From a virus (lineage: Duplodnaviria; Heunggongvirae; Uroviricota; Caudoviricetes): a stretch of DNA of 44,487 nt. The position numbers and the translations under genes were made by a program. Positions 43,286-44,487 of the stretch are shown in pieces (positions within the stretch are counted from its first letter, which is position 1; each line of letters starts with the position of its first letter). The notes below the pieces were generated by a model, which saw only the letters and a list, made by a program, of their open reading frames with translations, was not told the DNA's origin and ran no database searches. The DNA is taken from positions 1 to 44,487 of the IMG/VR virus record IMGVR_UViG_2718218131_000009; one strand, written 5' to 3'.

Positions 43286-43459
43286 TCATGCTGCTTTGCG
43301 ACGACGAAGCTTACCCTGCTGCTCTTTACCAGAGACAGTAGCGTGAGTGAACGCATTAGGAGCAGCCTTCATCAGAACTTCAACAGCAGCACCCATACCT
43401 GCGAATGCTTTCATTGTGTCGAACTTAACCTGTGGCTTGGTTGCTTTTTGATCTTCCAT
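43286..43459 (-). CDS. Small hypothetical protein (57 aa)
   Basis: MEDQKATKPQVKFDTMKAFAGMGAAVEVLMKAAPNAFTHATVSGKEQQGKLRRRKAA. GGAG RBS 7 nt upstream of the ATG; ends 24 nt before the terminator. Not in the ORF track because it is under 60 aa. Confidence 0.4.
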   Translation of the reverse strand: MEDQKATKPQVKFDTMKAFAGMGAAVEVLMKAAPNAFTHATVSGKEQQGKLRRRKAA

Positions 43460-43498
43460 AGAAAACTCCAGAAGCTATACCGAAACAATTCCTGTTGT

Positions 43499-43918
43499 TT
43501 ACTCATCATCAATAGATGATACGCAATATTTATTTTTAAATTTAAGGTTCTTTGGCGTAACTTCATCAGATATATCAAAACCGTCCAGAATTCTATTGAA
43601 TGTAGCTTCTGGCATATCATCATGAACGGAAATCTCACCCGATCGCTGCTTTCTAACCATGTTATCCACTCGCCAAATTATAGCTTCAGCGTAAACAACA
43701 TAACTTGGATGCTTGATAAAGCGATGATCACCAGAATTCAAGACGCAAGACGGATCGTGGGGGACACCATCCTTGATACTAGAAATATTAACAACTAAAA
43801 CACAATAACAATCGTTAACGGGGTAATAAACAGGATCATTACAAATCACATGAAGATGATTGCATGGCCCAGTTGGGGCAAGCACAGTTCCTTTCCTGTA
43901 TGGCTGATAATCCGTCAT
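43499..43918 (-). CDS. Hypothetical Cys/His-rich protein, candidate toxin partner of the Panacea-domain protein
   Basis: 139 aa, AT-rich. ATGA translational coupling to the upstream Panacea-domain gene. No recognised fold. Confidence 0.55.
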   Translation of the reverse strand: MTDYQPYRKGTVLAPTGPCNHLHVICNDPVYYPVNDCYCVLVVNISSIKDGVPHDPSCVLNSGDHRFIKHPSYVVYAEAIIWRVDNMVRKQRSGEISVHDDMPEATFNRILDGFDISDEVTPKNLKFKNKYCVSSIDDE

Positions 43919-44487
43919 GATAATTGCAAAGAAAATTCCTTAAGTTTCTGAGATTCTTCCATTTTGCCAATTATACGATTAGCCTCATCCTCGCTTTTAC
44001 CCTCACTGATCAGCATTTCTTTCAGGTCTATAGGCTTACGAGAATTGCCAGGATTGTGCCACTCTGGACAAACGCTTTCTAAATGCGTCATGTTTGCGAG
44101 ATCAAATCGGTTCATATGCCCATACAGAGAATAGATTTCATCTAAAATCCGGATATCTGCACGGCTCAACTCATCAAAGACCTCGTCTGCATCCATTTCC
44201 CTCGGATCTGAACGCAACAACACATCATGCCCGTTCGTCTCTATCAAGTTGTACCAGTAGTCACCAATGCCTTCAGCCTTACCACGAATCAAGTTCAGCG
44301 TATTCGACATGACTGGACCAAATTTCATAGAGTAAAGGCTATCTTCGCCGATCATCCTGCCATGCTTCAAAATCGACTTGCGGTTAGACAGATAGAGCAG
44401 CTTCATCAATTTCAGATATGCCATGCGCCCACCTCGCTTAAGAAGTAGGTATGCAGCCATTTGAGCTACTTTTTCTTCGCAAAACAT
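43915..44487 (-). CDS. Panacea-domain (DUF4065, SocA-like) antitoxin-like protein
   Basis: AYLKLMKLLYLSNRKSILKHGRMIGEDSLYSMKFGPV matches the Panacea/SocA signature (KLqKLLY...a.k.GPV). The ATG is the last codon of the window, so the N-terminus may be cut. Confidence 0.65.
   Translation of the reverse strand: MFCEEKVAQMAAYLLLKRGGRMAYLKLMKLLYLSNRKSILKHGRMIGEDSLYSMKFGPVMSNTLNLIRGKAEGIGDYWYNLIETNGHDVLLRSDPREMDADEVFDELSRADIRILDEIYSLYGHMNRFDLANMTHLESVCPEWHNPGNSRKPIDLKEMLISEGKSEDEANRIIGKMEESQKLKEFSLQLS

Follow-up and report, generated by a model that had tools for sequence, protein, structure and literature searches.

A Panacea-domain gene pair at the edge of an Escherichia coli prophage is very probably a PanAT toxin-antitoxin module of the T6 cluster

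What is encoded by the block of minus-strand genes at the right edge of a prophage, and does its leading gene, which carries a Panacea domain, guard a new kind of toxin? The block occupies positions 43,286 to 44,487 of the Caudoviricetes record IMGVR_UViG_2718218131_000009, whose whole stretch of 44,487 nucleotides (nt) we analysed and call here the window. An earlier note, made from the letters of the DNA, had described it as a three-gene toxin-antitoxin (TA) or anti-phage operon whose second product might be an undescribed toxin or abortive-infection effector. Our analysis gives a more familiar answer: the first two genes very probably form a type II TA module of the PanAT kind, with a MazF-fold toxin of the published cluster T6, and would be a new Escherichia coli member of a known family. 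The three open reading frames (ORFs) of the block and the overlap between the first two are all present in the window as the note had described them. The pair, which we call panA and panT, is laid out as follows:

43915-44487, minus strand: panA, 190-aa antitoxin ORF, recognised by its match to PF13274
43499-43918, minus strand: panT, 139-aa toxin ORF, placed in cluster T6 and predicted to have a MazF/Kid/CcdB-like fold
43915-43918, minus strand: ATGA, in which the panA stop codon overlaps the panT start codon, read directly from the sequence

The ATGA overlap suggests that translation of panA and panT is coupled.

To characterise the antitoxin we searched the 190-aa protein with profile hidden Markov models, and the Panacea domain that had been supposed in it was found: Pfam SocA_Panacea (PF13274) matched with E=1.8e-18 and 67.9 bits (gathering cutoff 25.7), over 109 of 113 profile positions. 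This Panacea (DUF4065) domain spans residues 27-137; there is no N-terminal domain, and an extension of about 50 aa with a conserved helix-like tail at its end follows at the C-terminus. RefSeq names the protein (WP_000458583.1) 'Panacea domain-containing protein'. The ATG of panA is formed by the last bases of the window, and its surroundings can be read in E. coli strain SLK172, whose sequence matches positions 43200-44487 with 100% identity. Upstream of the ATG this strain has an in-frame TAA, no alternative start between the two, and a GAGG 8 nt before the ATG; the upstream stop and ribosome-binding site (RBS) show that panA does begin at this ATG and that the ORF is complete.

Among the PanA proteins that accompany T6 toxins the N-terminus is highly conserved, M.[FY]SE.K.AQMA.Y.L...GGRMAY.KLMKLLYL (44330-44487 in the window). 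Beyond the Panacea domain they carry a conserved amphipathic C-terminal tail (...KLKEFSLQLS, ...LKKFSSELA, ...ITKLLAELA; loci L022, L024, L025, L035 and L044 of our set), which may serve as a neutralising element or as a degron. The founding Panacea/DUF4065 protein is SocA, from the type VI TA system SocAB of Caulobacter. SocA is a ClpXP adaptor for the degradation of SocB, and SocB binds the DnaN sliding clamp. The partner in the window differs from SocB, a cluster T10 protein, in its MazF fold, and with the SocA equivalog model NF047745 (NCBIfam) PanA scored 13.5 bits, below the cutoff of 190.

The 139-aa protein is Cys/His-rich, as had been remarked (6 Cys and 6 His). The opinion that it has no known toxin fold had to be abandoned after structure prediction. 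An AlphaFold2 (AF2) model of PanT, made from a 35-sequence alignment, had a pLDDT of 93 and a pTM of 0.86, and Foldseek returned E. coli MazF as its top match with probability 1.0. In two fold searches, this one among them, the MazF and Kid RNases rank above CcdB; the best matches in a viral structure library were a 'PemK-like protein' and an 'Endoribonuclease'. We therefore assign to PanT, with high confidence in the model, a predicted SH3-like barrel fold of the MazF/Kid/CcdB type. PanT matched nothing in Pfam, NCBIfam, PADLOC or a PDB sequence-profile search, and in PHROGs it matched an unannotated family.

A profile search (E<=1e-3) collected 2731 representatives of 50%-identity clusters for the PanT family. 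Residues His21, Leu22 and Gly113 are invariant in the wider family and Asp55, Cys58, Gly63, His65, Phe67, Ser72, Tyr76 and Ser117 nearly so; position 47 is Ser or Thr in every row listed (every second of 50 sequences), while His23 and Cys26 are conserved among closer relatives only. In a register based on secondary structure, His21 falls at MazF H28/R29 and Ser/Thr47 at MazF T52/T53. This register, which involves no superposition, suggests a site of the MazF type with His replacing the catalytic Arg. The conserved Asp55, Cys58 and His65 are placed in the loops that follow, and as no MazF counterpart can be assigned to them there is room for a different chemistry, for instance a metal site. Compared with MazF and Kid, PanT has further conserved residues (Asp, Cys and His), plus two added C-terminal helices (residues 104-131). 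The antitoxins differ too: in MazEF and Kis-Kid (PemIK) these are MazE or Kis proteins of AbrB or ribbon-helix-helix (RHH) type, whereas the antitoxin in the window is a Panacea domain.

The length of the toxin also had to be settled. RefSeq WP_014640052.1 presents it as 128 aa from an internal start (window 43885-43918; L001 8300-8686), 11 residues short. Conservation across genera of the N-terminus MT.Y.PYRKGT, with an invariant Gly10, and of the ATGA overlap indicates that the 139-aa form, as in the record of phage SKA5, is the correct one. The same -4 overlap of panA and panT is found in Proteus, Shewanella, Pantoea, Kosakonia and Pluralibacter.

Is a toxin of this type new? The suggestion that it might be undescribed does not stand, since the family is already catalogued and one of its members has been validated. 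Kurata et al. 2022 (PNAS, PMC8832971) sorted PanA-associated toxins into clusters in their Dataset S1. Cluster T6 takes up at least 57 rows in the part of that dataset considered here, nearly all of them antitoxin-first with a PanA lacking an N-terminal domain, and many with gaps of -4 or -1. Among these rows is a Pseudomonas moraviensis pair (PanT WP_083201923.1, PanA WP_083354365.1), with the HHpred label 'EndoA/PemK/MazF-family RNAses' and scored as a true TA. By tblastn we found PanT homologues, 36-56% identical, in four genomes listed there under T6, each at its published spacing:

Pantoea septica LMG 5345: published T6 gap -4; same spacing behind a Panacea ORF at our locus L025
'Yersiniaceae bacterium 2016Iso4' (now Chimaeribacter coloradensis): published T6 gap -1; same spacing at L024
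Salinivibrio socompensis S35: published T6 gap +1; same spacing at L035
Gluconacetobacter diazotrophicus PA1 5: published T6 gap +15; same spacing at L044

The P. moraviensis proteins belong to the same cluster as the window pair, and the comparison was made through their nearest readable Pseudomonas relative, the pair of phage Sirocco, rather than with the P. moraviensis sequences themselves. Sirocco PanT (locus L061 1486-1884) is 48% identical to the PanT of the window and Sirocco PanA 46% identical to its PanA. Sirocco PanA, which has a GTG start, begins MIFSEQKVAQ, the very ten residues that the Kurata authors added to P. moraviensis PanA, and Sirocco PanT begins MPGIIF where the P. moraviensis cloning primer encodes MPGNIL. 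The Sirocco record leaves PanT unannotated and has instead a short ORF on the opposite strand (1741-1875). When MIFSEQKVAQ was back-translated with an ATG start, no match was found among the genome contigs searched, which is likely due to a GTG start as in Sirocco. The termini MPGNIL... and ...IRQNNF, derived from the P. moraviensis primers, had no match among 360 proteins. The accessions WP_000458583, WP_014640052 and WP_000390072 (the last being the product of the third gene of the block) were not found in the full-text search or in the supplements of Ernits 2023 and, as far as these were covered, of Kurata 2022. Taken on sequence and spacing, the 139-aa protein is assigned to PanT cluster T6, its link to P. 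moraviensis being read via Sirocco.

The P. moraviensis T6 pair has been studied experimentally (PMC8832971). Its toxin halts growth of E. coli and the cognate PanA rescues it, the two proteins co-purify in a pull-down, and the toxin specifically lowers 35S-Met incorporation and not DNA or RNA synthesis; RNA cleavage was inferred, not demonstrated, by the authors. One difference is the setting, since the window pair is prophage cargo at a dusA attachment (att) site and the P. moraviensis locus is marked 'NotPhage' in the portion of the dataset considered. The same paper includes a PanAT from E. coli STEC O31 (PanT WP_000019185.1, cluster T3), which shares with ours the species, the antitoxin-first order and a Panacea protein without N-terminal domain. 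Its T3 toxin, however, is a small peptide that depolarises membranes and has no relationship to the MazF-fold PanT.

We then looked at how the pair is distributed. PanT homologues occur in Shewanella, Vibrio, Proteus and 29 species-representative genomes, from Enterobacterales to Alphaproteobacteria. Of 34 loci checked with tblastn, 31 have a PanA homologue immediately upstream of that of PanT; these are all the loci that can be evaluated (31 of 31), the remaining three being cut off by contig ends. The identities of PanA and PanT drop together, from 87/87% down to 30/36%, and the spacing, where both ORFs could be read, ranges from -4 to +15 and is usually an overlap. No third gene is conserved with the pair in the loci examined. 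Its settings differ, and include an integrative island beside an integrase, a P2-like element and positions after lambdoid tail-fibre genes. Among complete E. coli genomes the pair is present in 208 of 5426, always on the chromosome, and both ORFs are intact in 206 of these 208 at 95-100% identity. Nine phage records also carry it (hosts Escherichia, Yersinia, Vibrio, Pseudomonas, Klebsiella and Helicobacter), annotated as 'hypothetical protein' or, in Sirocco, not at all. In Proteus and Providencia (L007-L010, L013) panAT follows prophage tail-fibre genes and lies beside Abi_2, a subtilase (Peptidase_S8), UPF0167 and an ABC/AAA ATPase, which suggests that this site is a cargo hotspot too, with neighbours typical of defence islands.

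The third gene of the block and the elements around the pair complete the layout:

43286-43459, minus strand: 57-aa ORF (phrog_2741, WP_000390072.1), with its own GGAG RBS, after a gap of 39 nt behind panT
43242-43267, minus strand: intrinsic terminator hairpin, with an 11-bp stem containing 6 GC pairs, followed by U6
43473-44487 and about 190 nt past the window end, no strand assigned: variable cargo slot, delimited by blastn against phage mEp460

The 57-aa gene is an independent passenger outside the PanAT module. A homologue of its product was found by tblastn in none of the 34 panAT loci checked, and in Kosakonia sp. S29 the pair (83-86% protein identity) abuts the excisionase-like gene without it. 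Conversely, complete E. coli genomes with the 57-aa gene number 565 and those with the pair 208, and in mEp460, Salmonella and Enterobacter the gene occurs without panAT, behind a gene for a 177-179-aa protein. On this independent distribution we reject a three-component module including the 57-aa protein. The earlier description of a three-gene operon holds to the extent that co-transcription of the 57-aa gene with the pair is plausible, since a sequence scan found no promoter-like or terminator-like site between the 139-aa and 57-aa genes; in the window the three are probably transcribed together, but the 57-aa gene is a conserved unit of its own. Structure prediction, confident for PanT, was uninformative for the 57-aa protein (pLDDT 63), to which no fold could be assigned. 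The terminator behind it had been called strong and bidirectional. Read on the minus strand, the hairpin has the form of a canonical terminator, and for the convergent excisionase (xis) gene it is a weaker one: it folds with -19 kcal/mol in the minus-strand reading, compared with -16.2 in the other (z about -3.3), and on the plus-strand side just four U follow the stem and the terminator scan makes no call.

The 177-179-aa partner that the 57-aa gene has elsewhere matches nothing in Pfam or PADLOC, and mEp460 gp23 is 66% identical to the Enterobacter copy. These two genes (L050 3087-3990; L052-L060) lie beside xis and att in mEp460 and Salmonella; in Enterobacter prophages the same set belongs to the late region, with DUF968 on one side and a methyltransferase or holin gene on the other. 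The set looks like a second mobile cassette, and in the window it looks as if panAT took the place of the larger partner and orphaned the 57-aa gene.

How did panAT come to this position? The prophage of the window is lambdoid and has dusA of E. coli as its integration site. As the note had seen, the block lies at the prophage edge and is convergent with a PrtN/excisionase-like gene; a displaced 5' fragment of dusA begins about 250 nt past the window end. The genome record of phage SKA5 contains these genes too, and behind them come first the dusA fragment and next the integrase. Homology to mEp460 (blastn) ends at 43472 of the window, 13 nt upstream of the start codon of the 57-aa gene, and picks up again at the dusA fragment (locus L001, 9482-9649); in mEp460 the interval is filled by an unrelated 177-aa gene. 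This break and resumption identify panAT and the region of about 190 nt upstream of it as a cassette that occupies a variable cargo slot. The claim of an acquired cargo with a TA pair thus holds for panAT, a conserved pair (31 of 31 loci) in a swappable slot, and does not extend to the 57-aa gene. It had been argued from a block 'far more AT-rich' than its neighbours, which overstates the case. The AT-richness is real but modest: the whole block has 42.2% GC, panAT 41.3% and the 139-aa gene 38.6%, against 47.1% in the phage early region and 42.7% in the adjacent xis gene.

Two further features lie at the opposite end of the prophage. In SLK172 the left prophage end (locus L051 4893-7062, about window 1-340) has its integrase, beside dusA, split by ISApl1 (IS30-family), so that this prophage copy is probably locked in the chromosome. 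At the same, integrase end of the window, positions 673-4077 of the plus strand encode an 1134-aa DUF4765 protein (PF15962, E=0, full length) that has no PADLOC match. This stretch, with 33.5% GC, is foreign cargo much more clearly than the panAT block.

How would the module work? By analogy with the P. moraviensis T6 pair, PanA would bind PanT directly and keep the toxin inactive, and free PanT would stop growth by blocking protein synthesis. Its fold predicts that PanT would most probably do so as an endoribonuclease that cleaves mRNA or tRNA, with a likely active site in which, in the secondary-structure register, His21 would stand for MazF Arg29 and Ser/Thr47 for MazF Thr52. Stand-alone Panacea domains neutralise toxins directly according to the NetFlax study (PMC10440598), which also put forward the hypothesis that Panacea may sense an unknown trigger. 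Speculatively, the module may stabilise the prophage, or it may defend by abortive infection upon loss or triggering of PanA. Its place in a swappable slot at the edge of the prophage would suit a 'moron' that keeps the prophage stable or shuts out other phages. An anti-phage role of panAT is possible; we found no published phage-defence test of the PanT/PanA T6 family in the literature.

Several observations weigh against reading the pair as a T6 PanAT module with an RNase toxin. Pfam scans of 35 and of 50 family members gave no significant match, including to PF02452 or CcdB, the sole match to PemK_toxin being that of one member in 50, below threshold at E=0.11. An hhalign comparison of the PanT family with a MazF/Kid alignment (MazF and Kid of E. 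coli, which agree exactly with 3NFC and 1M1F, and MazF of B. subtilis and S. aureus) returned a probability of 0.2. The relationship of PanT to MazF is thus structural only, with no link at the level of sequence. The canonical catalytic Arg of MazF appears to be replaced in PanT, and RNase activity would follow from the fold and from the translation phenotype of a relative that is about 48% identical or less. In PADLOC-DB 2.0 neither protein of the pair has a match (none of the three proteins of the block at E<=1). The promoter of the panAT block lies beyond the window end and any autoregulatory site would likewise fall outside. Finally, the toxicity of the window PanT is a prediction, and of the 25 PanTs chosen by Kurata et al. 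8 had no toxic effect in E. coli (PMC8832971).

How do these points affect the choice between explanations? PanT might use the MazF/CcdB scaffold without being an RNase, either as a gyrase poison like CcdB or through a metal or Cys/His site made of His21, Asp55, Cys58 and His65 and acting on a component of translation. We regard this as unlikely, with a small but appreciable chance of being right: the P. moraviensis T6 toxin hits protein synthesis specifically, and not DNA or RNA synthesis, which argues against gyrase, and both the ranking of MazF and Kid above CcdB and the Ser/Thr conserved where MazF Thr52 is expected speak for an RNase. A bolder proposal has a slimmer chance. It would make T6 PanT a MazF-fold lineage in which a His21-Asp55-Cys58-His65 site, metal-binding or of Cys/His catalytic type, replaces the Arg/Thr RNase centre and inhibits translation by a chemistry undescribed for this fold, and would have the Panacea protein act as a sensor of infection by another phage at the prophage edge that releases the toxin and so brings about abortive infection, a defence that present catalogues would lack.

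The pair could also be inert or decaying in the prophage, or PanA could mainly do something other than neutralise PanT. The split integrase of the 100%-identical SLK172 locus, which marks that prophage as decaying, the shortened toxin annotated in RefSeq and the several PanT candidates that are non-toxic in E. coli are what one would cite in favour. We consider it very improbable nonetheless, as nothing has been lost from the N-terminus, the overlap or the residues conserved in the family, the ORFs stay intact in nearly all E. coli carriers (206 of 208, at 95-100% identity), and the same pair is present in the phage genome records SKA5 and Lys8385Vzw. Hardly credible by now is the idea of a three-gene module with a 139-aa product of new fold, acting as an undescribed toxin or as an effector of abortive infection. 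It draws on the single terminator common to the three genes, on the lack of a Pfam, NCBIfam or PADLOC model for the 139-aa protein and on the public records, which all name that protein 'hypothetical protein'; against it stand the separate occurrence of the 57-aa gene and the pair, the MazF-like fold predicted at high confidence, and the publication of the family as cluster T6, with a validated member. We therefore retain a type II PanAT module with a MazF-fold T6 toxin as the most probable identity of panAT.

Since the kind of toxin is not new, panAT retains a modest value, for annotation and for work on the catalytic chemistry of T6 toxins. The pair is found in about 4% of complete E. coli genomes, labelled only 'Panacea domain-containing protein' and 'hypothetical protein', and can now be named a PanAT of the T6 (MazF-fold) type. 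The PanT family has no Pfam or NCBIfam model, and building one would improve annotation widely. The family has been validated with a Pseudomonas protein only, and panAT, which occurs naturally in E. coli, would be convenient for studying the target and chemistry of the T6 toxin, and also for asking if Panacea modules located at the edges of prophages protect against phage.

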